Assembly (NCBI GenBank): GCA_009929695.1
Contig: RZZW01000011.1
Coordinates: 159-64,158, forward strand
DNA: 64,000 nucleotides
Source of the DNA: Clostridia bacterium
GTDB taxonomy: Bacteria > Bacillota > Clostridia > Oscillospirales > Ruminococcaceae
Reading direction: 5' to 3'
Shown: positions 1 through 51,136 of the stretch, in pieces
How positions within the stretch are numbered: the stretch's first letter is position 1
Layout of the letters: every line of letters begins with the position of its first letter
The notes under the pieces: generated by a model
Databases searched by the model: none
What the model was told of the DNA's origin: nothing
The model's input: only the letters and a program-made list of their open reading frames with translations
Translations under genes and position numbers: made by a program

Positions 1-65
1 TAAATCCGCCGCTGTGGCGGTTTGAGGGCAATTTTAAAGGTTTATAATTTCAGATGATAATTTGA

Positions 66-1454
66 TTATTTGCTTTTAATATACTCATCAATCGCTTTTG
101 CGGCTTGTTTGCCGGCGCCCATTGCCAAAATTACTGTGGCTGCTCCGGTTACGGCGTCGCCGCCGGCGTAGACGGCGGGGCGGGTGGTTAGGCCGTCGTC
201 GCCGTTTGTTACTATGCAGCCGTGCTTATTTGTTTCAAGTCCGGGGGTTGTCGAGCGGATAAGCGGGTTCGGGCTTGTGCCGATTGACATTATCATGCAG
301 TCGATATCGAGTGTGAACTCGCTGTTTTCCTTGACAATCGGACGGCGGCGGCCGCTTGCGTCGGGCTCGCCGAGGGTCATTTCGACACATTTCATGCCGC
401 AGACATAGCCCTTTTCGTCGCCGAGAACCTCTGTTGGGTTGCAGAGCGTTTTGAAGATGATGCCCTCCTCCTCGGCGTGCTCGACCTCCTCTTTACGTGC
501 GGGGAGCTCTTCCATGCCGCGGCGGTAGACTATGTAAACCTCGTCTGCGCCCATGCGCTTTGCGCTGCGCGCGGCGTCCATTGCGACGTTGCCGCCGCCG
601 ACTACTGCGACGCGCTTTGCGTGCATTACAGGCGTATTTGTGCCCTCTTTGTAGGCCTTCATCAAATTTATTCTCGTCAAAAATTCGTTTGCGGAATAAA
701 CGCCGTTAAGGCTTTCGCCGGGGATATTCATAAATCTTGGCAGACCTGCGCCTGAGCCGATGAATACGGCTTCTGCGCCGTCGTCGAAGATTTCGTCGAT
801 TGTGATTGTTTTGCCGACGACTACGTTTGTCTCAACGTCAACGCCGATTGCTTTGAGGCCGTCGACCTCGTTTTGAACGATTGCTTTGGGCAGACGGAAC
901 TCGGGTATGCCGTAGCTTAAAACGCCGCCCGCGACGTGAAGCGCTTCGTACACAGTGACCTTATAGCCCATTTTGGCTAAATCGCCCGCTGCTGTAAGTC
1001 CGCTTGGGCCTGAGCCGATGACGGCTACCTTATGTCCGTTTTGCGTTGGCATGGCGGGCTTTTCTGCTCCGTGCTCGCGGTGATAATCGGCGACAAAGCG
1101 CTCTAAACGGCCTATGCCGACGCTCTCTGCCTTGATGCCACGAACGCATTTGCCCTCGCACTGGCTCTCCTGCGGGCAGACGCGTCCGCACACGGCGGGC
1201 AGGCTGCTTTGAGCGTGCAATACGGCGTATGCGCCCTCGATATCCTCTGCGGCAACCTTGCCGACGAACGCGGGAATGTCTATCTTCACAGGGCAGCCTG
1301 ACACACAGGGCTTGTTTTTGCAGTTGAGGCAGCGTTTTGCCTCTTCGACTGCCATTTCGTATGTGTAGCCGAGAGCTACCTCGCTGAAGTTTTTATTTCT
1401 AACATCCGGCTCTTGAACAGGCATCGGACATTTATTGGGGGTCATGTTTGGCAT
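66..1454 (-). CDS. nfnB: NfnB-type NADPH-dependent oxidoreductase (GltD-like, homotetrameric glutamate synthase family)
   Basis: 462-aa ORF. N-terminal Cys clusters (CLNCKNKPCVSGCP and CGRVCPQESQCEGKC) fit two 4Fe-4S sites. Dinucleotide fold VAVIGSGPSGLTAAGDLA. Sits downstream of an NfnA-like gene. Confidence 0.85.
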   Translation of the reverse strand: MPNMTPNKCPMPVQEPDVRNKNFSEVALGYTYEMAVEEAKRCLNCKNKPCVSGCPVKIDIPAFVGKVAAEDIEGAYAVLHAQSSLPAVCGRVCPQESQCEGKCVRGIKAESVGIGRLERFVADYHREHGAEKPAMPTQNGHKVAVIGSGPSGLTAAGDLAKMGYKVTVYEALHVAGGVLSYGIPEFRLPKAIVQNEVDGLKAIGVDVETNVVVGKTITIDEIFDDGAEAVFIGSGAGLPRFMNIPGESLNGVYSANEFLTRINLMKAYKEGTNTPVMHAKRVAVVGGGNVAMDAARSAKRMGADEVYIVYRRGMEELPARKEEVEHAEEEGIIFKTLCNPTEVLGDEKGYVCGMKCVEMTLGEPDASGRRRPIVKENSEFTLDIDCMIMSIGTSPNPLIRSTTPGLETNKHGCIVTNGDDGLTTRPAVYAGGDAVTGAATVILAMGAGKQAAKAIDEYIKSK

Positions 1455-1490
1455 TTGTGTGACGTCTCCTTTTTAAATTTTAAGGTAATT

Positions 1491-1621
1491 GCGGACGAGC
1501 GAAGCTCGCCCCTACAATTGTAATTGCATCGCCGTTAGTTTGGGTGAAGCTGCGCGGGTCGTCGAGGACTCTGGCCCCTACGCACCTTGCAAGAATGTAG
1601 GGACGCCATATATGGCGTCCG
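1491..1621. repeat. Three GTAGGG-headed hairpin units (REP-like) between nfnA and nfnB
   Basis: gcggacgagcgaagctcgcccctaca (1491-1516), gggtcgtcgaggactctggcccctacg (1556-1582) and tgtagggacgccatatatggcgtccg (1596-1621). The same unit types recur at 4525, 22150, 29026, 38346 and 49222. Confidence 0.85.
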
Positions 1622-1633
1622 AAGTTGCAGGTT

Positions 1634-2467
1634 TTATTTATTTAATAAATTGCATGTCGCTTCGCGGGCGTGGGCTTCAAAGTCTTTGTACATTGAGCCG
1701 CGGTGCATGGCTTCGTCGAAGTCGACTAAATGGCCGTCGAAATCGGGGCCGTCTACGCAGGCGAATTTTGTTTCGCCGCCGACTGTAAGGCGGCAGCCGC
1801 CGCACATGCCTGTGCCGTCTATCATGATTGGGTTCATGGAGACTATTGTTTTTACGTTATATTTTTTTGTTGTTGCGCAGACGAATTTCATCATTATGAC
1901 AGGCCCTATTGTGATGACCTCGTCGTAATTTTCGCCGTCGTTTATAAGCTTTTCGAGCGCGTTTGTGACAAGACCCTTTTCGCCGTGGCTGCCGTCGTCT
2001 GTCATCATGACAAGCTTGTCGGAGACAGCGGCGAAATCGTCCTCTAAAATCACCAAATCTTTATTGCGGAAGCCGACGATTGAGTGAACTATTGTGCCTT
2101 GCTCGTGAAGTGCCTTTGCGATTGGGAACGCGATTGCGCAGCCAACGCCGCCGCCTACTACGGCGACCTTTTTAAGCCCCTCAATATGCGTTGCGGTGCC
2201 GAGAGGGCCGACGAAATCGCAGATATATTCGCCCTCGTTAAGAGCGTCGAGCGCCATTGTTGAAGCGCCGACTATCTGATAAATTATCGTGACTGTGCCC
2301 TTTTCGCGGTCATAATCAGCGATGGTGAGCGGCACGCGCTCGCCGTCCTCGGTTGCTCTGAAGATGATGAACTGACCCGGCTTCGCCTTTTTTGCCACTA
2401 GTGGCGCTTCGACAACCATCTTTGTGACGGTTGGGTTAAGGCTTATTTTTGAAACTATTTTATACAT
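1634..2467 (-). CDS. nfnA: NfnA-type ferredoxin-NADP+ reductase subunit (FAD / 2Fe-2S, PyrK/SudB-like)
   Basis: 277-aa ORF with the C-terminal DGTGMCGGCR 2Fe-2S motif and a PyrK-like FAD/NAD fold pattern. Paired with the GltD-like subunit. Confidence 0.85.
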   Translation of the reverse strand: MYKIVSKISLNPTVTKMVVEAPLVAKKAKPGQFIIFRATEDGERVPLTIADYDREKGTVTIIYQIVGASTMALDALNEGEYICDFVGPLGTATHIEGLKKVAVVGGGVGCAIAFPIAKALHEQGTIVHSIVGFRNKDLVILEDDFAAVSDKLVMMTDDGSHGEKGLVTNALEKLINDGENYDEVITIGPVIMMKFVCATTKKYNVKTIVSMNPIMIDGTGMCGGCRLTVGGETKFACVDGPDFDGHLVDFDEAMHRGSMYKDFEAHAREATCNLLNK

Positions 2468-2490
2468 TTCCCTGCTCCTTTGAAATTGGA

Positions 2491-3762
2491 TTACTTTATT
2501 GCGTCAAAGCCTGCTTGCAAATCTTCGATGATATCGTCGATGTGCTCAAGCCCGACGGAAAGTCTGATTAATCCCGGCGTGATGCCGCAGGCGACAAGCT
2601 GCTCGTCTGTTAGCTGACGGTGTGTGCTTGACGCGGGGTGCAAAACGCAGGTGGCGATGTCGGCAACGTGCACGACGTTATTTGCGAGCTTTAGGCTGTC
2701 CATAAATTTGACGGCAACCTCGCGCCCGCCCTTTATGCTGAACGAAATTACGCCGCTTGCGCCGTTTGGAAGATATTTTTGCGCAAGCTCGTAATAGGTG
2801 TTGTTTTTAAGCGTTGGATAATTGACAAACTCGACACACGGCTGTGCGGCGAGGAACTCGGCGGCTTTTTCGGCGTTGCGGCAATAGCGCTCCATGCGGA
2901 CGGCTAGTGTTTCAAGCCCTAAATTGAGATAAAACGCCGCTTGTGCACCGGGATACATGCCGAAATCGCGCATGAGCTGAACGCGCGCCTTTGTGATGTA
3001 AGCGGCTTTGCCGAACGACTTTGTGTAGGTCAAGCCGTGGTAGCTTTCGTCGGGGGTGCAAAGGCAATCAAACTTGCCGTTATCCCAGTCGAAATTGCCG
3101 CTGTCAACGACTACACCGCCGACCTGTATGGCGTGACCGTCCATATATTTTGTTGTTGAATGTGTGATTATATCTGCGCCGAACTCAAACGGACGGCACA
3201 TCACCGGCGTTGCGAACGTGTTGTCGATGATCAGCGGCACGCCATTTTTATGGGCGACGCGGGCAAATTTTTCGATATCTAAAACGTCGATTGACGGGTT
3301 TGCGATTGTCTCGCCGAACATCGCTTTTGTGTTTGGCTTGAACGCCTTTTGAAGTTCATCCTCGCTTGCGTTTTGGTTAACAAATGTCACGTCGATGCCA
3401 AAGCGGCGCAGTGTGACGTTGAAGAGGTTAATTGTGCCGCCGTAGATTGTTGACGAGCAGACAAAGTGGTCGCCTGCTTCAAGAATATTTGCGATTGACA
3501 AAAAGCTTGCGGCCTGACCACTTGTTGTGCAAAGCGCGCCCACGCCGCCCTCAAGCGCCGCGATTTTTTCTTCAACCGCCGCGACGGTGGGGTTAGAAAT
3601 ACGCGAGTACATATGGCCGTCGACCGATAAATCAAACAGCTTGCCGATGTGCTCTGTAGAGTCGTAGGTATATGTGGTGCTTTGGTAAATAGGCAGCGCC
3701 TTGGGCTCGCCGTTTTTAGGCTGATAGCCCTCGTGGAGACATTTTGTTTCGATGTGAGACAT
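2491..3762 (-). CDS. metY: O-acetylhomoserine sulfhydrylase (PLP-dependent Cys/Met metabolism family), paralogue 1
   Basis: 423-aa ORF with conserved SxTKYxxGH PLP-lysine region (HSTTKYMDGH) and the family-typical C-terminal LIRLSVGLEHIDDII. Second paralogue at 30203..31486. Confidence 0.85.
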   Translation of the reverse strand: MSHIETKCLHEGYQPKNGEPKALPIYQSTTYTYDSTEHIGKLFDLSVDGHMYSRISNPTVAAVEEKIAALEGGVGALCTTSGQAASFLSIANILEAGDHFVCSSTIYGGTINLFNVTLRRFGIDVTFVNQNASEDELQKAFKPNTKAMFGETIANPSIDVLDIEKFARVAHKNGVPLIIDNTFATPVMCRPFEFGADIITHSTTKYMDGHAIQVGGVVVDSGNFDWDNGKFDCLCTPDESYHGLTYTKSFGKAAYITKARVQLMRDFGMYPGAQAAFYLNLGLETLAVRMERYCRNAEKAAEFLAAQPCVEFVNYPTLKNNTYYELAQKYLPNGASGVISFSIKGGREVAVKFMDSLKLANNVVHVADIATCVLHPASSTHRQLTDEQLVACGITPGLIRLSVGLEHIDDIIEDLQAGFDAIK

Positions 3763-3787
3763 ACTTCTTTCTTCTTTCTTCTTTCTT

Positions 3788-4300
3788 CTATTTTCTTTGT
3801 AAAACCGTCCCCGACTCCACTTTTGCCTGCGGGGGGACGATATTATTTGCTTTTATAATTGCGCCGGGGGCTATGTGGCAGCAGACGCCGAGCGTGCAGT
3901 CGTGGTCTATGAGCGCGCCGATGTTTATTATGCTGCCGTCCTCTACCTTTGTGTTTGTGTTTATGACGGCGTTTGGCAGCACTATTACGCCGAAGCCTAT
4001 GTCTGCCGAGGGACTTATGTAGGCGTGCGGGTGTATCATAGTGGGGACGAAATAGCCTGCGTCGTGAAGCTCCTTCATCCATGCGTAGCGCAGTGAGTTG
4101 TCGCCGAACGCGGGGTATGCGTCGGAAAATTCCGAAATAAGGCTCTCGCGACGGTATGCGCCGCAGTGGGCTATAACGTCATCGGCGTCGAGCGCGCCGT
4201 CGTCGAGAAAGGCTATGTGGTCGTAATCTCCAAGTGATATCGCAAGCTCGCGCACGGTGCGTCCAAAGCCGCCCGCGCCGAGAATAAGCAGACTTTTCAC
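3788..4300 (-). CDS. NeuD/PglB-type left-handed beta-helix (hexapeptide) acetyltransferase
   Basis: N-terminal LLILGAGGFGR Rossmann-like motif followed by hexapeptide-repeat-like C-terminus. The ORF opens at 4372, but GTG at 4300 preceded by AAGGGAAG is the more plausible start. Confidence 0.65.
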   Translation of the reverse strand: MKSLLILGAGGFGRTVRELAISLGDYDHIAFLDDGALDADDVIAHCGAYRRESLISEFSDAYPAFGDNSLRYAWMKELHDAGYFVPTMIHPHAYISPSADIGFGVIVLPNAVINTNTKVEDGSIINIGALIDHDCTLGVCCHIAPGAIIKANNIVPPQAKVESGTVLQRK

Positions 4301-4524
4301 GATGTCGCTTCCCTTCACAAATGCATATGTTATACGTTTTTTATTATAGCATAAACTATTTGAAAATTCCACTTTAAGCCTTAATTATACAATTTTAGTA
4401 GCATTTCACAATTCTTTTTATTATATAAGGTAAAAATTTGTAGGCATTCAAAGTACTTTTTCGGTCAAAACTATTTAAAAATTTTGTAAATTTGATATAC
4501 TTAAGATATTTACAGCCGCGCAGA

Positions 4525-4602
4525 ACGTAGGGACGCCATATATGGCGTCCGCATGGCTTTGCGTGAATTATCGGCTTCGGACGCCATGTATGGCGTCCCT
4601 AC
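4525..4602. repeat. REPIN-like inverted doublet of GTAGGG hairpins, just upstream of potA
   Basis: cgtagggacgccatatatggcgtccg (4525-4550) and cggacgccatgtatggcgtccctaca (4577-4602) are inverted copies, separated by a 26-nt spacer. Confidence 0.85.
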
Positions 4603-4639
4603 ATTAAACCCTGCATGGGTTTAAAACGAAAGGTAAGAA

Positions 4640-5716
4640 ATGGCGGAAACTATACTTAAATTGGATCACATAACAAAGACGTTTGGCGACACGCAGGTTT
4701 TGAGTGATATAAACCTTGAAGTTCAGCGCGGGGAATTTATAACGCTGCTCGGGTCGTCCGGCTGCGGCAAAACGACGACGCTGCGCATTATCGCGGGGCT
4801 CGAAACACCCGACGGCGGCACTGTTATGCTCGGCGGCAAGGACGTTACAAATGAAGAGCCGAACAAGCGCAACGTCAACACGGTTTTTCAGAGCTACGCG
4901 CTTTTTCCGCACATGACTGTCGCGCAGAACGTCGCGTACAGCTTAAAGCTTAAAAAGGTGGACAAGGCGACTATACAAAAAGAGGTTGCATCCGTGCTGA
5001 CACTTGTGCAACTTGAGGGCTATGACGACCGTATGCCGTCTGAGCTTTCGGGCGGGCAGCGCCAGCGCGTGGCGATTGCGCGCGCGATTGTCAACAAGCC
5101 GCACGTGCTTTTGCTTGATGAGCCGCTCGGCGCGCTTGATTTGCAGCTTCGCCGCCAGATGCAGCTTGAATTAAAGCACCTGCAAAAAAAGCTTGATATG
5201 ACCTTTATATACATCACGCACGACCAGGAAGAGGCGCTTAACATGTCCACGCGCATAGCCGTTATGCGCGACGGGCTTTTTGAGCAGATTGGCACTGCGG
5301 CGGAGATTTACAACCGCCCGAAAACGGCGTATGTGGCGAAATTTGTGGGCAGTGCAAACATTGTAAACGGCGTTGTCAAGGCGCAAAACGGCAGCGCGCT
5401 GACGGTTGAAGTGGCGGGCGGCGAGGCCGAGGCGTTTGCTTTTGACGAAAAATATGAAGGCGGGCAGAAAATCTGTCTCGCCGTGCGCAGCGAGCACGTG
5501 CTTATACACCACTGCGAAAACGAGCCGCAGGGGCTGTGCGCCGTTGTGACGGAGAAATCTTTCGCGGGCGGAATGCTGCGCATTGTGTTTAAGCTTGAGG
5601 ACGGCACGACGCTCGTCGCGAGCAGACACGGCATCGACATCGACTTTTCCGTGGGCGACAAAGCCTGCGTGGGCTGGGCGGCTGAAAACGCCGTGCCGGT
5701 GGAGGCTGACGAATGA
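4640..5716 (+). CDS. potA: Spermidine/putrescine ABC transporter ATP-binding protein
   Basis: Walker A GSSGCGKTT, signature LSGGQRQRV, Walker B LLLDEP and a PotA-type C-terminal TOBE-like domain. First gene of a potABCD-ordered operon. Confidence 0.9.
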   Translation: MAETILKLDHITKTFGDTQVLSDINLEVQRGEFITLLGSSGCGKTTTLRIIAGLETPDGGTVMLGGKDVTNEEPNKRNVNTVFQSYALFPHMTVAQNVAYSLKLKKVDKATIQKEVASVLTLVQLEGYDDRMPSELSGGQRQRVAIARAIVNKPHVLLLDEPLGALDLQLRRQMQLELKHLQKKLDMTFIYITHDQEEALNMSTRIAVMRDGLFEQIGTAAEIYNRPKTAYVAKFVGSANIVNGVVKAQNGSALTVEVAGGEAEAFAFDEKYEGGQKICLAVRSEHVLIHHCENEPQGLCAVVTEKSFAGGMLRIVFKLEDGTTLVASRHGIDIDFSVGDKACVGWAAENAVPVEADE

Positions 5717-6579
5717 AGAAAAAGTCCCTTCGCAAAAACGGCAGCTCGTGGCTGATGCTGCTGCCGCTTTACATCTTTACGCTTTTATTTGTGCTTGGGC
5801 CGCTTGTTTACATGGTGGTGCTTAGCTTTAAAATGCGCGCTGATGTTTGGGGCGTGCTTGATATTTTTACGCTTTCAAACTACAAAAATATATTTGAGCC
5901 TGTTTATTTAAACACGTTTTTGCAGTCGTTTAAGCTCGCGTTTACATCGACTGTGCTCATTGCTCTGATAGGCTATCCGTTTGGATATTTTATGGCGAAG
6001 CTGTCGGCGGCGTGGAAAAAGCGCATGATGATTGTGCTTATGATTCCGTTTTGGACGAACAGCCTCATACGCCTTTATGGGTGGATTATCATTTTCCGTG
6101 CCAACGGCTCGCTTGATAAAATACTCATGGGAACAGGCATAACAAGCGCACCATTAAAGCTTTTGTACACATACCCCGCAGTTGTTGTGGGCATGGTGTA
6201 TGCGCTTTTGCAGTTTATGATTTTGGCCGTGTATTCAAGCGCCGAAAAGATGGACTGGAGCCTTGTTGAAGCCGCGCGCGACCTCGGCGCAACCTCGTGG
6301 AAGGCGTTTACTTCGGTGACGCTTAAAATGACGCTGCCGGGGCTTATGTCGGGCATTATACTGACGTTTATCCCGTCGATGGGCTTATTTTTCATCGCGG
6401 ATATCCTCGGTGGAAACAAGGTAGTGCTTGTCGGCAGCCTGATACAAGACCAGCTTATGAAGGCGCACAACTGGCCGTTTGCCGCGGCGTTAAGCGTAGT
6501 TTTAATGATAATGACAACGCTGATGATTTCGCTTTATAAAAAGCTGACTAACACGACGGAACTGGAGGGCTTGCTGTGA
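5713..6579 (+). CDS. potB: Spermidine/putrescine ABC transporter permease
   Basis: 288-aa multi-TM protein with an EAA-type loop (EAARDLGATSWKAF). Overlaps the potA stop by 4 nt. Confidence 0.85.
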   Translation: MKKKSLRKNGSSWLMLLPLYIFTLLFVLGPLVYMVVLSFKMRADVWGVLDIFTLSNYKNIFEPVYLNTFLQSFKLAFTSTVLIALIGYPFGYFMAKLSAAWKKRMMIVLMIPFWTNSLIRLYGWIIIFRANGSLDKILMGTGITSAPLKLLYTYPAVVVGMVYALLQFMILAVYSSAEKMDWSLVEAARDLGATSWKAFTSVTLKMTLPGLMSGIILTFIPSMGLFFIADILGGNKVVLVGSLIQDQLMKAHNWPFAAALSVVLMIMTTLMISLYKKLTNTTELEGLL

Positions 6580-6738
6580 AATTCTTTCACAGCAAGCTCC
6601 TCGCGGGGCGATGCGCAGTGACATACGCGCTTGCGCGCTCCGTCCCTTATGCGCAAAAATCATCTTATCATTCTGCTGATTTGTGTGATAAGATGAGTGC
6701 TTCTTTTTAATTTATCCCAACACAAAGCAGCAGAATGG

Positions 6739-7560
6739 ATGATTTTAGTGAAAAACCGTACAAAGCTCCCCAATATTTACATCGGAATTGTATCTGTGAT
6801 AATGTATCTGCCCATACTGCTTGTGATAATATACTCGTTTAACGAGAGCAAGATAAGCAGTGTTTGGGGCGGGTTTTCGCTCAAATGGTACGAGACGCTT
6901 TTCAAGAACAGGGCGATGTTTGAGGCGCTTTTAAACAGCGTTATACTCGCCGTGTCATCGGGCGCGCTTGCCGCCGCAATAGGCACAAGCGCCGCTGTTG
7001 GCTTCACGCGCATAAAGCCGAAGAGCAAGGGCGCAATTGAGTATTTATCAATGCTGCCGATGATGACGCCGGAGATTATTCTCGGAATGGTGTTCATGGT
7101 GTTTTTCTCGCTTTTGGGGCTTCCGTTTGGCATGTTGACGCTTATTTTAGCGCACACGGCGTTTTGCATACCGTATATATACATGCTTGTAAAGGCAAGG
7201 CTTGTCGATATGGACAAGAGCATCTTAGAGGCGGCGCGCGATCTTGGCGCAAACGAGTATCATGTATTTTTTGACATAACTCTGCCGCAGCTTATACCCG
7301 CGATTATTTCGGGTATGCTTTTAAGCTTTGCAATGAGCTTTGACGACGTTATAATAAGCCTGTTTGTGACGGGCGTAAACGTCAACACGCTGCCGATAAA
7401 GGTATACACGCAGATGAAAACAGGCGTTACGCCTGAAATTAACGCGCTGTGTACGCTAATGCTTTGCGTGACCGTAATTTTGGTGTTGCTTTCGAGCGTT
7501 ATTAGTAAACCCAAGCGCTCAAAAGTTAAACATAGAGAGGATTTGGAGGTAACCAAATGA
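6739..7560 (+). CDS. potC: Spermidine/putrescine ABC transporter permease
   Basis: Multi-TM protein with the EAARDLGANEYHVF loop. The ORF opens at 6697, but ATG 6739 (MILVKNRTK...) gives the usual basic N-terminus. Confidence 0.85.
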   Translation: MILVKNRTKLPNIYIGIVSVIMYLPILLVIIYSFNESKISSVWGGFSLKWYETLFKNRAMFEALLNSVILAVSSGALAAAIGTSAAVGFTRIKPKSKGAIEYLSMLPMMTPEIILGMVFMVFFSLLGLPFGMLTLILAHTAFCIPYIYMLVKARLVDMDKSILEAARDLGANEYHVFFDITLPQLIPAIISGMLLSFAMSFDDVIISLFVTGVNVNTLPIKVYTQMKTGVTPEINALCTLMLCVTVILVLLSSVISKPKRSKVKHREDLEVTK

Positions 7561-8660
7561 AAAAAATTCTTGCAATCACACTGACACTTGCACTGGCTGT
7601 ATCAGCTTTTGCAGGCTGCGGCGCGGCATCATCGTCAGCCGCTGTATCGACAACGACACAATCAGCTTCAACCGCTTCGGCGGCAGGCAGCACAGAGCTT
7701 AATCTGTACACATGGGAGGGCATGTTCCCGCAGGAGGTGCTTGACGGCTTCACGGCAGAGACAGGCATCAAGGTAAACTATTCAAGCTTTGACACAGACG
7801 AGACAATGCTCGCGAAGCTTGAAACGTCAAAGGGCGGCGACTACGACCTCGTTATAGCTGACGATTACATCATCGAGACAGCTATCGCGGAGGGACTTGT
7901 CACAGAGCTTGACAAATCGCTTATTTCAAACATCGGCAACATCAACCCTGTGTATCAAGGTCAGTTCTTTGACCCTGAGGACGCATACACTGTCCCCTAC
8001 GGCGCGGGCGTGCAGACAATCGTCTACAACCCCACAGTTATCACTAAAGAGATAAATGGCTATGCCGATTTATGGGACGCGTCACTCGCGGACAGCATCG
8101 GTATCATCGGCAACTACCGCGTTATCGACGGCATGGCGCTTAAAGTCCTCGGCGAAAGCTACAACACAACCGACACCGCCACAATCGAAAAAGCTGGCGC
8201 AAAGCTGCTTGAGCTTGCACCGAACATTCGTCTTATAAAGGACGACAACCTGCAGGACGACCTTATCTCGGGCGAGATAAACGCCGCCGTAATGTACACA
8301 AGCCAGGTGACAGCCGCCTGCCTTGCAAACCCTGATTTGAAGGTTGTATATCCGTCTGAGGGCATCGGCTTTGGCGTGATGGCACAGTTTATTCCGTCAA
8401 ACGCGCCGCATTCAGACGCGGCATATGCGTTCATCGACTATATTTTGAAGCCCGAGGTTTCAAAAACATGCTTTGAGGCGCTTGGCTACTACTGCACAAA
8501 CAAAGCCGCCGACGAGCTTATCGACGACGCGTACAAATCATTCCTCACACTGCCGTCAGACTTTAGCGGCGAGACAGAGATGATTCAAAACATTGCAGCC
8601 GAAGCAGACGAAGCACATGTTAAAGTGTGGACAGAATTTAAGTCTGCCTGCGGACAATAA
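7557..8660 (+). CDS. potD: Spermidine/putrescine-binding lipoprotein (ABC substrate-binding protein)
   Basis: Signal peptide plus lipobox (LAVSAFAGC), a Ser/Thr/Ala linker and PotD-family length. Overlaps the potC stop and ends in TAA followed by a hairpin. Confidence 0.85.
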   Translation: MKKILAITLTLALAVSAFAGCGAASSSAAVSTTTQSASTASAAGSTELNLYTWEGMFPQEVLDGFTAETGIKVNYSSFDTDETMLAKLETSKGGDYDLVIADDYIIETAIAEGLVTELDKSLISNIGNINPVYQGQFFDPEDAYTVPYGAGVQTIVYNPTVITKEINGYADLWDASLADSIGIIGNYRVIDGMALKVLGESYNTTDTATIEKAGAKLLELAPNIRLIKDDNLQDDLISGEINAAVMYTSQVTAACLANPDLKVVYPSEGIGFGVMAQFIPSNAPHSDAAYAFIDYILKPEVSKTCFEALGYYCTNKAADELIDDAYKSFLTLPSDFSGETEMIQNIAAEADEAHVKVWTEFKSACGQ

Positions 8661-8683
8661 ACCTATCGCTTTCCAAAACATTT

Positions 8684-8725
8684 CCCTGCCAAAAGTTTAA
8701 CGCTTTTGGCAGGGAAGATTATTAT
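8684..8725 (+). terminator. Hairpin terminator candidate after potD
   Basis: ccctgccaaaag (8684-8695) pairs with cttttggcaggg (8702-8713). It is followed by an A/T-rich tail with only a weak T-run. Confidence 0.5.
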
Positions 8726-8752
8726 TTAAAGAAAAAATAAGGGGGCTTATTT

Positions 8753-10051
8753 ATGGACACAATTGAGCGTGCCATTATTGCGGCTGTTGATGAAAACAGG
8801 TCGGCTTTGATTGCGTTTGCCAAGGATGTTGGGGCGCATGGGGAGGCGGGCTTTTTTGAGGATAGGACGGCGAAAAAGGCGGCGGAGTTTTTGGCGGGGC
8901 TGGGGCTTACAGTCAAGACAGGGCTTGCCAAAACAGGCTTAAAGGCTGTGCTTAATGAAGCAAAACCGCGCGTTGCCATTATTGCCGAGCTCGACGGAAT
9001 TTTGTGCCCTAAGCACCCCTTTGCAAACCCCGAAAACGGAATTTCACACGCGTGCGGGCACAATTTGCAGCTTTGCGCAATGCTTGGCGCGGCGGCGGCA
9101 CTTTCCATGCCAGAGGTTAGCGCGGCGCTTGACGGCAGTGTTGAATTTCTTGCTGTGCCCGCGGAGGAATACGTGGCTTCACGCATACGCAAAACGCTTA
9201 AAGAGACTGACGACATACAGTTTTGCAGCGGCAAGAGTGAGCTTTTAAGGCGCGGCGAATTTGACGATGCCGACATAGCGCTGACTGACCACGTACATAT
9301 GATACCGTGCGATGAATACCTGCTTGCGGGCAATGTGGCGTGCAACGGCTTTGTGTGCAAAACGGTGCGCATACACGGCAAAGCGGCGCACGCGGCAACT
9401 GCACCGTTTGACGGCATAAACGCTTTAAACGCGGCGGCGCTTGCCATTTCGGCAATAGGTATGCTGCGCGAGACGTTTCGCGAAGAAGATACAATCCGCG
9501 TTCACACAAACCTCATCGACGGCGGCAAGGCGCTCAATGTTGTGCCTGATTTAGCGGTTGTTGAGCTGCAAATACGCGCGAATAACATTGCGGCGCTTGA
9601 TAAAGTATGCGCCGACATTGACCGCGTGTTTAACGTCTGTGCCTCGGCGCTTGGCGCGACGGCTGAAATAATAACCGAACAGGGCTACATGCCTGTGCGC
9701 CCGATGGCGGCAAGCGAAGCGACACTTAAAGCCGCCGAGACGCTTGGCATAAAAAGCGTAAAATGCCAATCGCCCGAAATGCGAAATATGGCGAGCACCG
9801 ACGTTGGAGATTTGACACAGGTGTTGCCTGTTATAAACTATACACACGGCGGCGTGTGCGGCTCTTTACACTCGGCAGATTTTGCCGTGACGGACGAAGA
9901 AATGGCGTATATTATGCCCGCGAAGCTTTTTGCATTATCGGCGTACTACCTTTTAAAGGACGGCGCGCAGCTTGCCAAAAAGACAATGGCGGACTTTGAG
10001 CCTGCGATGACAACGCAGCAATATGTTGACAAAGTAAAGGAGCAGATGTAG
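8753..10051 (+). CDS. M20-family amidohydrolase (AbgB / aminoacylase-like)
   Basis: 432-aa ORF with the HACGHN metal-binding motif and a dimerisation-domain-length insert. RBS AAGGGGG lies upstream. Confidence 0.75.
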   Translation: MDTIERAIIAAVDENRSALIAFAKDVGAHGEAGFFEDRTAKKAAEFLAGLGLTVKTGLAKTGLKAVLNEAKPRVAIIAELDGILCPKHPFANPENGISHACGHNLQLCAMLGAAAALSMPEVSAALDGSVEFLAVPAEEYVASRIRKTLKETDDIQFCSGKSELLRRGEFDDADIALTDHVHMIPCDEYLLAGNVACNGFVCKTVRIHGKAAHAATAPFDGINALNAAALAISAIGMLRETFREEDTIRVHTNLIDGGKALNVVPDLAVVELQIRANNIAALDKVCADIDRVFNVCASALGATAEIITEQGYMPVRPMAASEATLKAAETLGIKSVKCQSPEMRNMASTDVGDLTQVLPVINYTHGGVCGSLHSADFAVTDEEMAYIMPAKLFALSAYYLLKDGAQLAKKTMADFEPAMTTQQYVDKVKEQM

Positions 10052-10912
10052 ATGGCACAGCGTATTTGTTTTTTGGGGCGCGGCGGCAGCGGAAAGAGCA
10101 CCGTTGCGCAAAATTTATGCCACGCGCTGGCGCAAAAGGGCTATCACGTGCTACTTGTGGGCAATGATATTTCCCTTTCGTCAACTGTTTTGCTTCGCGG
10201 CGAGGCGGATATTCAGCCCGCGCTTGAAGATTACCGCGAGCATTATGAGATAGATTTAAACGACTACGTTATTACCACGCAGAGCGGCGTTTATTGCTTA
10301 GAGCTTGGCAGCATTGACCCCGGCGTCGGCTGCATGGCGCGCGGCGTGAGCCTTATTGACGAAATGCTCGACACGCAGGGCGTGAACGCCAATTTGCAGA
10401 TTGACTACATATTTTACGATATGTCCGGCGAGACACCGTGCACAGGCTATGTGCTGCCGATACGCGAGGGCGTTATGCAGCGGTGCATCATAGTGACAAA
10501 CGGCAGCTTTGCGGCGGTGACGACGGCAAACAGCCTTTTGCAGGCGATAGTTCGCGCGTCCGGCACTGACACCTTTCCCGTGCAATTGATAGTTAACAAC
10601 GCCGGCACGCGCGAGACTCGAGACGAGCTTGCGAGCTATGCACAGCGCGCGACGATTGAAATTTTGGCACATCTTGACTACGACAGAGAGCTTGAATACG
10701 CCTCGCTCGCGGGCAGAACGGCGTTCAGCGTAAACCCCGATTCAAGCGCATCGAAGCTGTTTTCACAGATTGCAGACGATTTGCTTTGCGGCGCAATACC
10801 CACGCGACTCACGCCTATCCCCCGCCGCGAGCTTATAACATGGCTGCGCGGTTGGCAGCGCCGAGAGCTTGAGCGCAAGCTTTTGACGTTGGAGGGAGCG
10901 CGCGATGTATGA
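10052..10912 (+). CDS. Divergent NifH/BchL-family (SIMIBI) ATPase with both 4Fe-4S-ligand cysteines
   Basis: P-loop GRGGSGKST. GVGCMARG aligns with NifH GVGCAGRG, and YDMSGETPCTGYVLPIREG aligns with YDVLGDVVCGGFAMPIREN. ATG abuts the TAG of the upstream gene, and the 3-prime end overlaps the next gene by 8 nt. Confidence 0.7.
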   Translation: MAQRICFLGRGGSGKSTVAQNLCHALAQKGYHVLLVGNDISLSSTVLLRGEADIQPALEDYREHYEIDLNDYVITTQSGVYCLELGSIDPGVGCMARGVSLIDEMLDTQGVNANLQIDYIFYDMSGETPCTGYVLPIREGVMQRCIIVTNGSFAAVTTANSLLQAIVRASGTDTFPVQLIVNNAGTRETRDELASYAQRATIEILAHLDYDRELEYASLAGRTAFSVNPDSSASKLFSQIADDLLCGAIPTRLTPIPRRELITWLRGWQRRELERKLLTLEGARDV

Positions 10913-12257
10913 TGTCACCTTTGAAAACGGACTTGTCATCGACGTGCGCGGCAAAACCTCGCGCATTGCAAATGTAGCTGTAAAAAACGGCGTTATAGCG
11001 GAGATTTCGGCGCGTGAGCTGCCCGCAAAACGCACGATAGACGCGTCAGGGCTTGTCGTCGCGCCCGGCTTTATCGACCCTCACTCGCACCTTGACGGCA
11101 TGCCCTACGCGGGGCAGCTTTCGGCCTTGCAGGGCATAACGACTATCGTCGGCGGCAACTGCGGGCTTTCGCCTGTTGACATGGCGGCGTTTTTTGACGA
11201 GCAGGACAAGCGCGGCTATGTGCTCAATCAGCTCATGTGCGTGGGACACAGCTTCAGTTTACGACGGCACGTCAGCGTGACCGACCACGACGCTCACGCG
11301 GGCGCGGCGCAGACTGACGCTATGGCGCGCCTTGCGAGAAAAGCGCTTGACGACGGCGCGTGCGGCGTGTCGCTTGGGCTTGACTACGCCCCGGGCACCT
11401 CGCTTGCCGAGATAGACGCAATGGCGCAGGCGGCGGCGGAATACGGGCGCGTACTCAGCGTGCACACGCGGCTTTTCACGCAAAACGACCTCTACTCGCT
11501 GTATGAAATGCTCGCGGCGTCAAAGCGCGCGAACGTGCGTCTGTTATTCAGCCATTTTGTGTATCAGTACAGCGGTTTCGGCACGATGGAGCCTGCGATT
11601 GACGTCATAAACACGGCGCGAGAGAGCGGGCTTGACGTGTGGACGGACACCGGAATGTACACCGACTGGGCGACTGGCATAAGCACCGCGACGTTTGACG
11701 AGCAGACGATAAAGGACAATTCTCTGCGATTTGGAGACATGGTTGTCGCGACAGGAAAATACACAGGTCAGCGCCTCAACCGCGATTTATATATGCTATT
11801 GCGCAAAAAATATCCCGACACCTCCGTGATATGCTTCACGGGCTGGGCGGAGGAAATTTACGCCGCAATGAAGCAGCCGTATGCCATGCCGAGCACCGAC
11901 GCGGCGGAGTATGCAAAGGGCGAGGGGCACCCGCAGATAGCGGGGAGCTTCCCGAAATATCTTCGCGAAATGGTGCGCGAGCAGAAGCTTATCTCGCTTG
12001 AAGAGGCCGTTTACAAGGCGACGCTTTTGCCCGCAGAGGTGTTTAAAATACCACAGCGCGGCGTGCTTGAAGAGGGCTATGCCGCCGACATAACTGTTTT
12101 TGACATAAACACAGTAGCCGAGCTTGCCGCCATGCCCGACATCGGCGAGCCGGACGCGCCGCCAAGAGGCATACCGTATGTCATGGTGAACGGCGAGCTG
12201 GCAGTTGACAGCGGCGAATACATGCACACGCTGTCGGGCAGGACAATAAGATACTAA
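10905..12257 (+). CDS. Amidohydrolase-superfamily protein, D-aminoacylase (N-acyl-D-amino-acid deacylase)-like
   Basis: 450-aa ORF with N-terminal beta-sandwich pattern (VTFENGLVIDVRGK) and the GFIDPHSHLDG metal-binding HxH motif. Confidence 0.75.
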   Translation: MYDVTFENGLVIDVRGKTSRIANVAVKNGVIAEISARELPAKRTIDASGLVVAPGFIDPHSHLDGMPYAGQLSALQGITTIVGGNCGLSPVDMAAFFDEQDKRGYVLNQLMCVGHSFSLRRHVSVTDHDAHAGAAQTDAMARLARKALDDGACGVSLGLDYAPGTSLAEIDAMAQAAAEYGRVLSVHTRLFTQNDLYSLYEMLAASKRANVRLLFSHFVYQYSGFGTMEPAIDVINTARESGLDVWTDTGMYTDWATGISTATFDEQTIKDNSLRFGDMVVATGKYTGQRLNRDLYMLLRKKYPDTSVICFTGWAEEIYAAMKQPYAMPSTDAAEYAKGEGHPQIAGSFPKYLREMVREQKLISLEEAVYKATLLPAEVFKIPQRGVLEEGYAADITVFDINTVAELAAMPDIGEPDAPPRGIPYVMVNGELAVDSGEYMHTLSGRTIRY

Positions 12258-12460
12258 AATTATTTTATAATTTCTGCGGCAATCACATTCTAATGGTTTG
12301 CAGCTTTCCTGTCATTCTGAGCGAAGCGAAGAATCTTAAAACCTACGATAACGCGCAAAAGATTCTTCGCTTCGCTCAGAATGACAGGGTGTGCTACCCA
12401 TTAAAATGTGCCGTTGCTGCGGCACTCCTTAATTCTTCCGTTTTCACTTTTTTAACAAAA
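12258..12460. repeat. Composite nested palindrome containing a 25-bp perfect inverted repeat (family A)
   Basis: gtcattctgagcgaagcgaagaatc (12311-12335) and its exact reverse complement (12361-12385). Flanked by cacattctaatgg / ccattaaaatgtg and the small hairpin gtgccgttgctgcggcac. Confidence 0.9.
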
Positions 12461-12477
12461 TAAATACCGCAAAAGCA

Positions 12478-12506
12478 TTGAAAGTGTGCAAACAATCTAA
12501 TATAAT
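12478..12506 (+). promoter_or_regulatory. Sigma-70-type promoter candidate for the broken hybrid kinase
   Basis: TTGAAA (12478-12483), a 17-nt spacer, then TATAAT (12501-12506). Confidence 0.5.
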
Positions 12507-12537
12507 TACATTATATAAAGTGGTTTACTATGACGCG

Positions 12538-12617
12538 CCGTAGGGCGGGGGGCTTGCTCCCGCCGTTGCAAAGCGTATGCCGCAAGTTTCGGCGGAAGCA
12601 AGCCCCCGCCCTACGGT
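12538..12617. repeat. REPIN-like inverted doublet (family E, GTAGGGCGGGGG head)
   Basis: ccgtagggcggggggcttgctcccgcc (12538-12564) and ggcggaagcaagcccccgccctacgg (12591-12617). A second copy lies at 49115-49191. Confidence 0.85.
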
Positions 12618-12664
12618 GTACCGTGAATTTATGAGGGCGGGCAAAGTGTGTAGGAGAGATTTTG

Positions 12665-15600
12665 ATGGACGATAAAAAGATAATGCTTATTGCGGACGAC
12701 ACGCAGACGGGGCGCGAGCTTTTGGCAAGCTTTTTAGTGAAGACTACGAAATAATTTACGCCTGCGACGGCGAAGAGACTGTCAAGCTTATCGAAAAATA
12801 ATCAAGCAAAATCGCAATGGTGCTGCTTGACATAATAATGCCTATGATGGACGGCATCGAGGTGCTGAAGTGGCTGTCAGCCTCGAAATATAACGGCATA
12901 CCTGTCATTGCTGTGACGGCGGAGCCTAGCTATCAGCTTGAGGCGCTTGAAAACGGCGCGTGGGACTTCATTGCAAAGCCTGTTGCAAGCAGCATAATAA
13001 AAGCTCGCGTGAACAACGTGCTCAGCCGCTGTACCTTTGAGAGAATACGCGACGACATGGGTGCCCCGCTCACTCCCGCGACATTTCAGCGGCTTTTGAG
13101 CATGACGGAGCTTTACAGCTGCCTTGTGAGCGAGAGCCAAAGCGCAATTTACGTCAGCGGCACAGACACCTATGACTTTTTGTTTATAAACGACGCCGGC
13201 CTCTCGTGGCTTGGCAAGGACGGCAAAAATTATTCCGGCAAAAATGCTATGAGTTTTTATTTAACCGCACGTCTCCGTGCGAATTTTGCCGAATAAATGA
13301 CATGAACTCAGAAAGCTTTCTTGAGCGCGATTATTTCTATCCGCGCACAGGGCGCACATATTTTATGCGCGGAAAACGAACGCAGTGGAACGGCATAAAC
13401 GCGCATGTGGAATATCTGCTTGACGTGACGGAAAACCGCAACGCCATGCGCGAAAACGCAAAGCTGACGCAGCAGCTGACATTAAATCAGCTAATGTACG
13501 AGGTGGCCATAAAAAGCTCCGGCATAAACATTTGGGAATACGACATACAAAACGACTCGCTTTTTGTGGTGTCAAACTCGCAGAGAATAAAGCAAAACTG
13601 CTTTCACATCGAAAACTACATCGAGTCCACAATTAAAAACGGATATGTGCGAGAGGACAGCATAGCCACCTTCCGCAGCATATTCACCCGTCTGCAAAAC
13701 GGAGAGCGCGAGATAACCGAGGACATTTGGTATAAGACGACAGACGAGCTTGGCTGGTGGTGCGAGCGCGTGACATACACCGCTTGCTTTGACGAAAACG
13801 GCAAGCCGCTTAAGGCGTTTGGCGCGGGCAGAGACGTCACTCGCGAAAAGGAAGCCGAGAAAAAGTTCTACGAGGAGATGTCGTACCGCGAAGCGCTGCA
13901 AAGCGGCAACTTGGCATCCATAAAAATAAATCTCACAAAAAACCTAGTCATAGAATGTTCAAGCCCGTTTAAAACGGTGAAAAAGCTTTCAAACGCGACG
14001 GCCGATGAATATTTTAGCAAGACGGCCTCGTATATGTCGCACAAGTCAATGCGCAAGGCGTTTTCAAAGCTGTTTAACCGCGCCATGCTTTTAAATAAAT
14101 TTAACACGGGCGAATACGTTGTGACGCTTGACGCAACGCGCGCGTTTGACACGCAAAAGGTGTACTGGATAAACTACACCGTGCACCTTATGAAAAATCC
14201 TGACAGCAACGATATTTTTGCATATGTGAGCTCCACAGACATCACGCACGAAAAGGTGATGCAGACGATAATATCGACTGTCGCTAAAACAGACTACGAC
14301 TTTTTTTGTCGTTGTGAACGGCAGCACAAATTCAGCGCTTGACTACGGCGTTGACGACGCACACCATCTTTTTTGCGAAGACGAAAACTTTGAAGAGCGA
14401 AACGAGGCTCACATAAGAGGCTGCGTTTGCCCCGAGGATGTTGAGCGCGTTGTTGAGGAATGCAAGATAGACACCGTTTGGAAAAACCTCGATAACGACG
14501 GCGTGCGCAAGCTAAATTTCAGCATGCGCGATAAAAACGGCGAGATACGCCGCAAGCAATTGCAGCTCACGCTCATCGACAAATCGCGCAAGACCTTTTT
14601 GATGACGCGCATCGACGTAAACAATATTTATGTTGAGCAGGAAAACGCAAAAAAGCGCCTGCTTGAAGCGCTTAACGCCGCCGAGCAGGCGAGCAAGGTA
14701 AAGACGGACTTCCTCGCGCGCATGAGCCACGATATCCGCACGCCGATGAACGCGGTTATCTGCCTTGCAAATTTAGGGCAGACATATCCTGACATCGACG
14801 AGACGCACGACTGCCTTAAAAAAATAGAGGCGTCGGGGCAATATCTTTTGGCGATAATAAACGATGTTTTAAATTTGAGCAAAATGGAGAGCCAGACAAT
14901 CATTTTTCACCCGACAGTTGTGCGCCTGCAAGACTTTATACGCGAGACGCTCGCGATAGTTATGCCGAGCGCCAACGAAAAAGCCTTGCGCGTTGATGTG
15001 AAGCAGATAGGCATAACGAGCAAATATGTGAAGCTTGACACCACATATACGCGTCAGGTGGCTGTGAATCTTTTGTCAAACGCCATCAAATTTACGCCGC
15101 ACGGCGGGCTTGTTCAAATTATTTTTGAAAACATTTCACGCGAGGGCAAATTTGTCCGCGGGAAGATGATTGTAAAGGACAACGGCGTGGGCATAAGCCG
15201 CGAATTTTTGCCGAGGGTGTTTGCGCCCTTTGAGCAGGAAAATGCACAGGACGACGCGGGGCGGCAGGGCACAGGGCTAGGGCTGTCCATCGTAAAAAAC
15301 ATCGTCGAGCAGATGGGCGGCACTGTGAGCGTTGAGAGCGAAAAGGGCAAGGGCACGGCGTTCACCGTTTAATGGTCGCTTGAAGTGGCGGACGAGAACG
15401 AGTTTGAGGGGGCGTCACCGCAAATCGCCGCGCGGCTTGCATCTTTGGCAGGCAAACGCGTGCTGCTTGTGGAGGATCACCCGCTGAACACCGAGATAGC
15501 AAGAAAGCTGCTCGAGCGCGAAAAAATGCTCGTTGAGGACACAGCTAACGGCAAAGAGGCCGTCGAGCGCTTTGAGGCGTCCGAAACAGGCTATTACGAC

Positions 15601-15828
15601 GCGATTTTAATGGACATCCGCATGCCTGTGATGAACGGCCTAGACGCGGCAAAAGCAATAAGAGCACTGCCCCGCCCCGACGCGGCGACAGTGCCCATAA
15701 TAGCCATGACCGCCAACGCCTTTGACGAGGACGTCAAAACCACTCTCGAATCCGGCATGAACGCTCATTTGTCAAAGCCGATAGAGCCAAATGTGATGTA
15801 CGATACCTTGAGCAGATTTATTAAATAA
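12665..15828 (+). pseudogene. Hybrid PAS sensor histidine kinase with N- and C-terminal receiver domains, disrupted by three frameshifts and two in-frame TAA
   Basis: Domains present: REC (MDDKKIMLIADD ... DIIMPMMDG), PAS repeats, H-box FLARMSHDIRTPMNAV, HATPase GTGLGLSIVKNIVEQMGG, and a second REC (DAILMDIRMPVMNG). Frame breaks at the T5 run 12731-12735, A5 run 13240-13244 and T7 run 14301-14307. In-frame TAA at 12799-12801 and 15370-15372. Paralogue of 23206..26544. Confidence 0.85.
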
Positions 15829-18922: not shown

Positions 18923-18997
18923 TGTCATTCTGAGCAAAGCGAAGAATCTTATCCCTCGTTGTGGAAACTAAAGATTCTTCGCTGCGCTCAGAATGAC
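18923..18997. repeat. Family A inverted repeat (diverged copy)
   Basis: tgtcattctgagcaaagcgaagaatc and gattcttcgctgcgctcagaatgaca flank a 25-nt spacer. Lies between the esterase stop and the enoate reductase start. Confidence 0.85.
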
Positions 18998-31661: not shown

Positions 31662-31889
31662 AAAAAGTGAAAAATAAAAAATGAAAAATTATTGTGTGAC
31701 GCTAGAGCGTCACATTTTAATGGGTATTGCACCTTGTCATTCTGAGCGAAGCGAAGAATCTTTTACGCGTTATTGTAGGTTTTAAGATTCTTCGCTTCGC
31801 TCAGAATGACAGACAACTGCAAACCACTATAATGTGATGCCCGCAGGCATCACTCCTTAATTTTTCACTTTTCACTCTTCATTTTTCAC
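31662..31889. repeat. Composite nested palindrome with a family A core
   Basis: A-rich arm (31662-31690) and its complement (31859-31889). Hairpins gtgacgctagagcgtcac and gtgatgcccgcaggcatcac. Perfect 25-bp inverted repeat 31736-31760 / 31786-31810. Confidence 0.9.
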
Positions 31890-38306: not shown

Positions 38307-38416
38307 TGTTATTCTGAGCGAAGCGAAGAATGGCAAAACCTCGATTGTAGGGGCGAGCTTTGCTCGTCCGCTTTCAACGCGCATACTTGTTCGGACGAGC
38401 AAAGCTCGCCCCTACA
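38307..38416. repeat. Half family A arm followed by a REPIN-like doublet
   Basis: gttattctgagcgaagcgaagaatg (38307-38333). Then tgtaggggcgagctttgctcgtccg (38346-38370) and its inverted copy (38392-38416). Confidence 0.85.
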
Positions 38417-50938: not shown

Positions 50939-51136
50939 AAGAAAAAAGAAGATAGAAGATAGAAAAATTGAGGAGTTACCGCTTTGCGGTAACTCCTTTG
51001 TCATTCTGAGCGAAGCGAAGAATCTTTTGCACATTGCCATAGGTTTTAAGATTCTTCGTCGCTTCGCTCCTCAGAATGACACATACTTGAAGGTGTGAGG
51101 TATATATGCAACAATCGCGCCTTCTTTTTTCTTTCA
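50939..51136. repeat. Composite nested palindrome with a family A core
   Basis: Polypurine arm 50939-50970, hairpin ggagttaccgctttgcggtaactcc, family A arms 51000-51024 / 51050-51078, and pyrimidine arm 51119-51136. Confidence 0.85.

Follow-up and report, generated by a model that had tools for sequence, protein, structure and literature searches.

The window analysed here, a 64,000-nucleotide stretch of contig RZZW01000011.1 from a Clostridia bacterium of the family Ruminococcaceae (assembly GCA_009929695.1), encodes a 286-amino-acid protein that truly belongs to the nitrogenase Fe-protein (NifH) family but has diverged strongly from its other members. Wherever its downstream DNA could be scored, the gene for this NifH-like protein is paired with a gene for a D-aminoacylase-type amidohydrolase, which we call Amh. 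To our knowledge, every characterized NifH-family protein passes electrons to a partner of the NifD/K fold, as in the nitrogenases, DPOR/COR, CfbCD, methylthio-alkane reductase (MAR) and ISR. The protein family is known, and what is new is a strictly conserved partner of a different fold. This strict pairing with Amh, without a nitrogenase-like partner nearby, suggests that an ATP-driven Fe–S protein serves a hydrolase.

Three genes make up the locus:

8753–10051, + strand: M20 amidohydrolase of the aminoacylase/dipeptidase type (432 amino acids (aa)), a facultative neighbour
10052–10912, + strand: NifH-like Fe–S ATPase (286 aa; PF00142), a deep-branching clade of the Fe-protein family
10905–12257, + strand: Amh, D-aminoacylase-type amidohydrolase (450 aa; Amidohydro_3/1), the invariant neighbour of the NifH-like gene

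These open reading frames (ORFs) lie exactly where a first-pass annotation had placed them, and they are packed tightly. The TAG stop codon of the M20 gene (10049–10051) abuts the ATG of the NifH-like gene at 10052. At the other end, the TGA stop codon of the NifH-like gene (10910–10912) and the ATG of Amh (10905) are joined in an overlap of 8 nucleotides (nt), ATGTATGA. Both junctions had been described in the first-pass annotation and are seen in the sequence. A Shine–Dalgarno-like sequence precedes each of the three genes (AAGGGGG, AAGGAG and GGAGGGAG). Contigs from wastewater RNA sequencing (RNA-seq) match all three genes with zero mismatches, and one of them crosses the junction between the M20 and NifH-like genes; these contigs are weak evidence of expression, as their depth is low and carry-over of DNA is possible.

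A divergent member of the Fe-protein family

The NifH-like protein matches the PF00142 model with a score of 161 bits against a cut-off of 25, with residues 3–264 aligned to positions 1–264 of the 271 in the profile. This score is low for a NifH, typical members of which reach 250–350 bits, and the protein falls under all of the NCBIfam equivalog cut-offs (score/cut-off: nifH 150/394, CfbC 137/402, BchL 98/345 and BchX 93/331). Models of the MinD/ParA type score lower still (CbiA 41, ParA/NUBPL 38 and MinD_arch 57 bits, versus 150–161 bits for NifH models). A sequence search of the PDB places MarH first (9fmg_D, 150 bits), ahead of NifH (118 bits or less), BchL (69 bits or less) and MinD (38 bits or less). 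The AF2 model of the protein (pLDDT 90.1), which has a long predicted helix at residues 258–282, matches MarH, NifH and VnfH structures at TM 0.81–0.90, and the top 50 PDB matches in a structural search with this model are all Fe proteins. Thus, profile scores, PDB sequence scores and structural matches agree in grouping the protein with NifH-type rather than ParA/MinD-type ATPases, which is where the first-pass annotation had placed it.

MarH, the Fe protein of MAR (NFL group IV-C, PDB 9FMG), is the closest of the known systems (150 bits, roughly 31% identity and TM 0.87–0.90). Both proteins have the P-loop, the pair of cluster cysteines and switch II, as well as a W-x3-W motif in the C-terminal region. 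However, MarH has a NifDK-fold partner, MarDK, and a switch I of the form CDPKxDST, whereas the window protein has no such partner nearby, carries NDISLSST at switch I and is much more divergent.

When 1.84 billion representative proteins were searched exhaustively with HMMER, just 31 matches had an E-value of 1e-30 or lower. The NifH-like family, at 168 bits or more, is separated by a score gap from ordinary NifH/CfbC-like proteins, which reach at most 137 bits per domain and many of which are fused to PF00148. In a neighbour-joining tree of 152 NifH-type domains (built, as was the Amh tree described below, without support values), the family is monophyletic and the midpoint root splits it from all the others. 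Its BLOSUM distance to MarH, NifH and CfbC is 0.72–0.77, compared with 0.46–0.51 among those three. Public records call members of the family ‘P-loop NTPase’ or ‘hypothetical protein’, and some are misnamed ‘nitrogenase iron protein NifH’.

Some of the nearest relatives outside the family (P0103, P0105–P0107, P0111, P0113 and P0114) are tandem double-NifH chains of 571–596 aa or chains of 807–1081 aa with two or three NifH stretches, one of which (P0106) also has a PF00148 domain; these are covalently linked Fe-protein ‘dimers’. Many other non-family relatives are single NifH–NifD-like fusions of about 700 aa.

Conserved cluster ligands and a rewritten switch I

The motifs of the NifH-like protein lie at the following positions, with equivalent residues given in Av2 numbering:

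10076–10102, + strand: deviant Walker A motif GRGGSGKST, in which the signature Lys (Av2 K10) is Arg
10157–10186, + strand: switch I, VGNDISLSST (canonical VGCDPKADST)
10319–10345, + strand: PGVGCMARG loop, containing Cys94 and R97
10331–10333, + strand: Cys94 (Av2 Cys97), predicted [4Fe-4S] ligand, with R97 (Av2 R100) in the same loop
10418–10465, + strand: switch II and second cluster ligand, DMSGETPCTGYVLPIR, with D123 (Av2 D125), E127 (Av2 D129), C130 (Av2 C132) and R138 (Av2 R140)
10814–10855, + strand: family-specific C-terminal helix motif P-x2-R-x2-L-x2-W-x3-W

All four sequences quoted in the first-pass annotation (GRGGSGKST, VGNDISLSST, PGVGCMARG and DMSGETPCTGYVLPIR) are present and align with NifH and MarH in the way that it claimed. 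The cluster cysteines that it singled out are also conserved in the subfamily. Among 88 near-full-length family sequences, on which all residue counts here are based, C130 is found in 88/88 and C94 in 85/88, the exceptions being two alignment gaps and one Ala. The loops that hold these cysteines, GxGCxARG and CTG[YF]xLPIR, are near-identical to those of Fe proteins. Conservation is similarly high at K15 (Av2 K15; 86/88), D39 (Av2 D39; 84/88), D123 (87/88), E/D127 (87/88), R97 (85/88) and R138 (87/88). The family therefore has in common with NifH, VnfH, AnfH, CfbC, BchL and BchX not only the Pfam family and the fold, but also the residues equivalent to Av2 C97, C132, R100, R140, D39, D125 and D129.

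What sets the family apart from those proteins, besides a TIM-barrel amidohydrolase as the partner gene, is a set of substitutions at other positions. The signature Lys at position 10 is replaced by Arg in 69 of the 88 sequences, with Lys in 17 and His in 1, so that the positive charge is retained and the residue altered. The canonical switch I sequence CDPKxDST is absent from the family, with NDISLSST in its place: Av2 K41 becomes Ser in 78/88 sequences, and Av2 D43 becomes Ser in 69 and Asn in 11. Av2 K143 is replaced by Val, Leu or Ile. The rewriting thus affects the element that, in nitrogenase, connects the nucleotide site with the partner. New invariants of the family are D103, E104 and the C-terminal W264-x3-W268, and within the C-terminal helix motif P255, R258 and W264 are each found in 83 sequences and W268 in 85. 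The dN/dS ratio of the NifH-like gene, at 0.03–0.20, is as low as that of Amh. Together with the residue conservation, this indicates that the nucleotide and cluster machinery is kept under selection.

The rewritten switch I, the loss of Av2 K143 and the PF00142 score of 161 bits, compared with 250–350 in typical members, would also fit an ATPase with no redox function. Such a protein could resemble MinD, ParA or Get3 and serve Amh as an ATP-dependent scaffold, switch or regulator, a mode of action often seen in SIMIBI relatives, or, like CooC, it could use the four cysteines to bind one metal ion and carry no Fe–S cluster. We consider this unlikely, because both cluster cysteines and the loops around them differ hardly at all from those of Fe proteins, and because all carriers of the gene pair are strict anaerobes, in which such clusters are stable.

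Strict pairing with Amh

To survey gene neighbourhoods, one genome per species was scanned, which gave 34 loci, and further loci came from look-ups of single homologues. Pairing was counted over the loci with at least 300 nt of downstream DNA, a set of 48 loci with 38 distinct NifH-like sequences. An Amh orthologue (47–72% identity) directly follows the NifH-like gene in 48/48 of these loci, at a distance of −20 to +97 nt, and the identical 8-nt overlap is seen in 19 loci. The sole locus first scored as unlinked proved to carry these two genes as a read-through with a frameshift. The two NifH-like members that diverge most (39–40% identity) are likewise paired with Amh, one of them beside an Opp-type transporter. 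Carriers of the NifH-like gene are found in the Oscillospiraceae (Ruthenibacterium, Angelakisella, Anaerofilum and Anaeromassilibacillus), the Lachnospiraceae (Anaerocolumna, Herbinix, Anaeromicropila and Lachnotalea) and the Selenomonadales (Propionispira, Massilibacillus and a veillonellaceous metagenome-assembled genome).

The first-pass annotation had described the NifH-like gene as lying between two amidohydrolases. The downstream half of this description extends to the family as a whole, Amh being present in every locus counted, but the upstream half does not: an M20 gene lies directly upstream in only 16/34 genome loci. In 22/34, a Pot-type importer is the neighbour, either upstream or downstream. 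Because M20 is thus found in about half of the loci and a Pot-like transporter in about two thirds, the arrangement between two amidohydrolases is lineage-specific. The remaining neighbours vary by locus and include MsrAB, PALP/Rrf2/Cys–Met genes, thiamine-salvage genes, ThiF and sugar genes.

A tblastn search with four PF00148 domains found no NifD/K-like gene in the 64-kilobase (kb) window, which agrees with the earlier statement that it holds no NifDK/BchNB/CfbD-like partner. The same search found none in about 50 family loci with roughly 8 kb of flank each, whole genomes being outside its range, so that the label ‘orphan’ holds locally.

The NifH-like protein might instead serve a distant NifD/K-fold or other redox enzyme, with Amh sharing only a pathway or regulon with it, for example in the scavenging of sulfur or nitrogen. 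MarH, its nearest characterized relative, comes from a sulfur-salvage system, and some of the gene pairs adjoin PALP, Rrf2 and Cys/Met genes or MsrAB. Furthermore, one Amh gene that lacks a NifH-like neighbour (locus L131, described below) is divergent to a cluster with Cys/Met, NifD-like, NifK-like, NifX-like and radical-SAM genes. However, a distant partner seems very improbable to us when the pairing holds in 48/48 loci, with stop/start overlaps, while all other neighbours change. In none of the family loci did the search described above, with its range of about 8 kb, find a NifD/K-like gene, and the large distance of the family from canonical Fe proteins (0.72–0.77, versus 0.46–0.51 among the latter) fits a changed partner.

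Some candidate fusions of the two proteins were rejected. P0246 (705 aa), which contains both NifH-like and Amh sequence, does not qualify as a Rosetta-stone fusion, as an internal deletion removes C94 and the C-terminal third is frameshifted. P0092 and P0033 are similarly frameshifted, and all three are assembly artefacts.

Amh retains a complete hydrolytic metal site

Amh is assigned to Amidohydro_3/1 by Pfam and scores 215 bits with PRK09061, under the cut-off of 340. By sequence, the PDB entries closest to it are those of N-acyl-D-Glu deacylase (3gip, 161 bits) and of D-aminoacylase (1m7j), and its AF2 model (pLDDT 91.9) matches 3gip, 1v4y and 1m7j at TM 0.88–0.89. Amh has the same fold as these enzymes and the same ligands, namely HxH, the Cys of GNCG, two His residues and an Asp, although its identity to 1M7J and 3GIP is only about 27–30% and it belongs to a separate clade, found in anaerobic Firmicutes and linked to Pot- or Opp-type importers. 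The ligands H60, H62, C86 (in GNCG), H187, H217 and D332 are invariant in 37/37 NifH-linked orthologues.

No additional conserved Cys cluster was found in Amh, Cys86 being the sole invariant Cys among the orthologues compared. A second Fe–S site in Amh was considered and rejected, given that only the ligand Cys86 is invariant and that C310, a Cys enriched in the linked set, is a single residue. Because the D-aminoacylase ligand set is complete, including the bridging Cys, and there is no extra Cys cluster, the metal site of Amh is the only evident acceptor for anything that the NifH-like protein might deliver.

Amh orthologues at 42–50% identity occur without a NifH-like gene, in the arrangements M20–Amh–PotABCD (Blautia), Amh–PotABCD and PotABCD–Amh, or alone. 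In the neighbour-joining tree of Amh, these unlinked proteins are mostly basal, and the linked proteins make up a large derived clade, within which one secondary loss is probable. This pattern suggests that the NifH-like gene was added to a pre-existing module of hydrolase plus importer. Judging from these sequences, the dependence is one-way, with the NifH-like gene an add-on to Amh and not the reverse. Once acquired, the NifH-like gene stayed attached to Amh.

The Amh orthologue at locus L131 (10001–11350), which has no NifH-like gene, is divergent from a cluster at 1–9245 (− strand). The order of this cluster is Cys_Met_Meta_PP, PALP, LCM, Cys_Met_Meta_PP, NifD-like, NifK-like, NifX-like, radical-SAM and Cys_Met_Meta_PP. 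It is a MAR-like, sulfur-linked nitrogenase-like system, and no Fe-protein gene was seen within 10 kb.

With the metal site as acceptor, the NifH-like protein could be a catalytic electron donor, and the pair a true two-component ATP-dependent reductase that carries out reductive chemistry at the Amh metal site. In this arrangement, the pair would have to turn over continuously, as nitrogenase, DPOR and MAR do. Gene pairing and translational coupling fit it equally well, the nearest characterized relative, MarH, is a reductase component, and the cluster ligands show the conservation seen in redox-active Fe proteins, as do the docking arginines R97 and R138. The distribution of C310, present in 33/37 linked and 1/6 unlinked Amh proteins, is in keeping with it too. 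Yet the hydrolytic ligand set and D-aminoacylase fold of Amh are intact, and Amh offers no second cluster site. Orthologues at about 50% identity occupy the same M20/Pot context without a NifH-like gene, which implies the same hydrolytic job, and the K41S and D43S changes in switch I argue against a fast ATPase cycle. On balance, a catalytic reductase is an unlikely explanation.

A possible accessory role for the NifH-like protein

The reading that we tentatively favour, while giving it somewhat less than an even chance, is that the NifH-like protein is a dedicated ATP-dependent Fe–S accessory, either an activase or a maturase, for the Cys-bridged metal site of Amh. If this model is correct, a NifH-like homodimer with MgATP bound would carry one inter-subunit [4Fe-4S] cluster on Cys94 and Cys130. 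Its dedicated partner would be the downstream, translationally coupled Amh and not a NifD/K-fold protein. The dimer would dock on Amh through its cluster face, and ATP binding and hydrolysis would drive electrons to the Cys-bridged binuclear metal site; in a variant of this scheme, the NifH-like protein would hand iron or a cluster to Amh. As a result, the Amh site would be installed, or restored to its active reduced form, in strict anaerobes. Amh could then deacylate an imported N-acylated amino acid or amine-like compound, acting with M20 where that enzyme is present, and import would proceed through the PotABCD-family ATP-binding cassette (ABC) transporter or, in one lineage, an Opp-type transporter. 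The cluster itself, the physical contact with Amh, the direction and purpose of the transfer and the nature of the substrate are all parts of this scheme that we infer. The statement that an Fe-protein-type ATPase couples ATP to low-potential electron transfer to a TIM-barrel amidohydrolase partner, either activating its metal centre or joining in catalysis there, is plausible if somewhat doubtful.

Because related Amh enzymes work without the NifH-like protein, this protein would be an accessory that stands outside the hydrolytic chemistry. An activase or maturase is preferred over a catalytic reductase for three reasons: related Amh proteins manage without a NifH-like protein in the same operon context, the hydrolytic site of Amh is unaltered, and the altered switch I suggests a slower, switch-like ATPase.

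There is precedent for a maturation role. NifH itself matures the P-cluster and FeMo-co. The SIMIBI maturation NTPases are dimeric P-loop proteins with a Cys site at the dimer interface, and they are encoded beside the metalloenzyme that they service. Among these relatives, CooC, UreG and HypB load metal sites, and UreG serves urease, an enzyme of the amidohydrolase superfamily. We therefore take UreG (urease), CooC (carbon monoxide dehydrogenase), HypB (hydrogenase) and the Fe–S carriers Mrp/Nbp35/ApbC as a working analogy to the NifH-like protein. These proteins nevertheless belong to other subfamilies, the window protein scoring 161 bits with the NifH model and 38–41 bits with ParA/NUBPL and CbiA.

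Several observations weigh against an activase or maturase. Close relatives of Amh, for example in Blautia, have no NifH-like gene. The residues of Amh that are specific to the NifH-linked clade are few (F117, F191, L203, D271 and C310) and form no obvious docking or cluster motif. We know of no D-aminoacylase that needs reductive activation or a chaperone, and of no maturation factor of the SIMIBI kind for these enzymes. Finally, both Av2 K41 and Av2 D43 are lost from switch I, and Arg mostly stands in for the signature Lys, so ATP hydrolysis by the NifH-like protein may be slow or altered.

Importer, M20 enzyme and substrate

Upstream of the three genes, the window contains the following features:

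4640–8660, + strand: PotABCD-family ABC importer (best NCBIfam hits are Pot models), a frequent, non-obligatory neighbour
4640–5716, + strand: potA
5713–6579, + strand: potB
6697–7560, + strand: potC
7557–8660, + strand: potD-like gene
8681–8717, + strand: terminator-like hairpin (16 pairs, then a T-rich tail), between potD and M20

The importer genes are present upstream of the trio, as the first-pass annotation had noted, but the hairpin at 8681–8717 separates potD from M20. An Rfam scan of positions 4000–13500 gave no credible riboswitch or leader. The longest ORF for potC has a GTG start at 6697, 117 nt past the end of potB. Since homologues align only from about residue 17–19, the true start probably lies some 50 nt downstream of this GTG.

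The M20 protein scores 169.8 bits with TIGR01891, above the cut-off of 153.75, and the PDB entries nearest to it are those of Xaa-Arg dipeptidase and YxeP. With the PotD equivalog model, for which the cut-off is 582 bits, the PotD-like protein reaches 200 bits. In an alignment with Escherichia coli PotD, residues E36, D168, E171, W255 and D257, which we take to be key positions for spermidine binding, correspond to Gly, Tyr, Ile, Gly and Met, respectively. Given this low score and the loss of most of the acidic residues presumed to bind spermidine, ‘polyamine’ is a family label only, and we did not adopt a polyamine as the imported substrate.

Nor do the neighbouring genes point to a substrate. 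PALP, Rrf2, Cys/Met and MsrAB genes, ThiM, ThiE and ThiD-like genes, ThiF, sugar genes and Opp genes were each considered, and each is found in a few lineages, with none family-wide. In the most divergent lineage (locus L129, 1717–8571), an Opp/Dpp-type peptide ABC transporter, in place of a Pot-type one, follows the NifH-like/Amh pair. This replacement suggests that the class of imported substrate differs between lineages while the pair remains constant.

Repeats and a split sensor kinase downstream of Amh

A dispersed palindromic repeat with arms GTCATTCTGAGCGAAGCGAAGAATC is present in the window, with ten arms observed and none expected by chance. One copy (12306–12390) lies just downstream of Amh, and the other arms are at 18924–18997, 31736–31810, 38308–38332, 51000–51024 and 54151–54224. 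The copy next to Amh is the one covered most deeply by the wastewater RNA-seq contigs, many of which run into unrelated sequence. The repeat is either a transcribed hairpin or an intergenic element of the REP type. The intergenic region downstream of Amh also contains, at 12538–12615 and upstream of a response-regulator gene, a second long inverted repeat, which is rich in GC (GCCGTAGGGCGGGGGGCTTGCT...AGCAAGCCCCCGCCCTACGG).

Farther downstream, at 12664–15828, a hybrid sensor kinase (REC, an unassigned region, HisKA–HATPase and REC) is seemingly divided among four or more overlapping ORFs that differ in frame. Of one receiver domain, the ORF at 12817–13296 contains just the C-terminal half; its N-terminal half is found upstream in another frame, with stop codons between the two. 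Either the kinase gene is a pseudogene, or the assembly has a series of frameshifts here.

Implications for Fe proteins and their partners

A 2026 survey of nitrogenase-like systems in Chem Rev classes all groups by their NifD-like subunit, and the word ‘amidohydrolase’ is absent from it. Lone NifH-like genes were counted as false positives by Dos Santos et al. (2012). Our search of the literature on NifH or ‘nitrogenase iron protein’ together with amidohydrolase or D-aminoacylase, on orphan NifH-like genes and on PF00142 found no description of the pairing.

Automatic annotation sometimes labels such proteins ‘nitrogenase iron protein NifH’, and counts of diazotrophs that are based on nifH can thereby be inflated in metagenomes from the gut and from wastewater. 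Because the gene pair is present in cultured gut and environmental anaerobes, including Ruthenibacterium lactatiformans, Anaerocolumna sedimenticola and Propionispira raffinosivorans, its function is directly testable. If the proposed link to Amh is true, the swap to an amidohydrolase partner would widen the roles of ATP-driven Fe–S ‘Fe proteins’, and some amidohydrolases of strict anaerobes would need an energy-dependent helper for redox or metal loading. The pair would then represent a new two-component class, in which an ATP-driven Fe–S protein activates the metal centre of a ‘hydrolase’ or joins in its catalysis.

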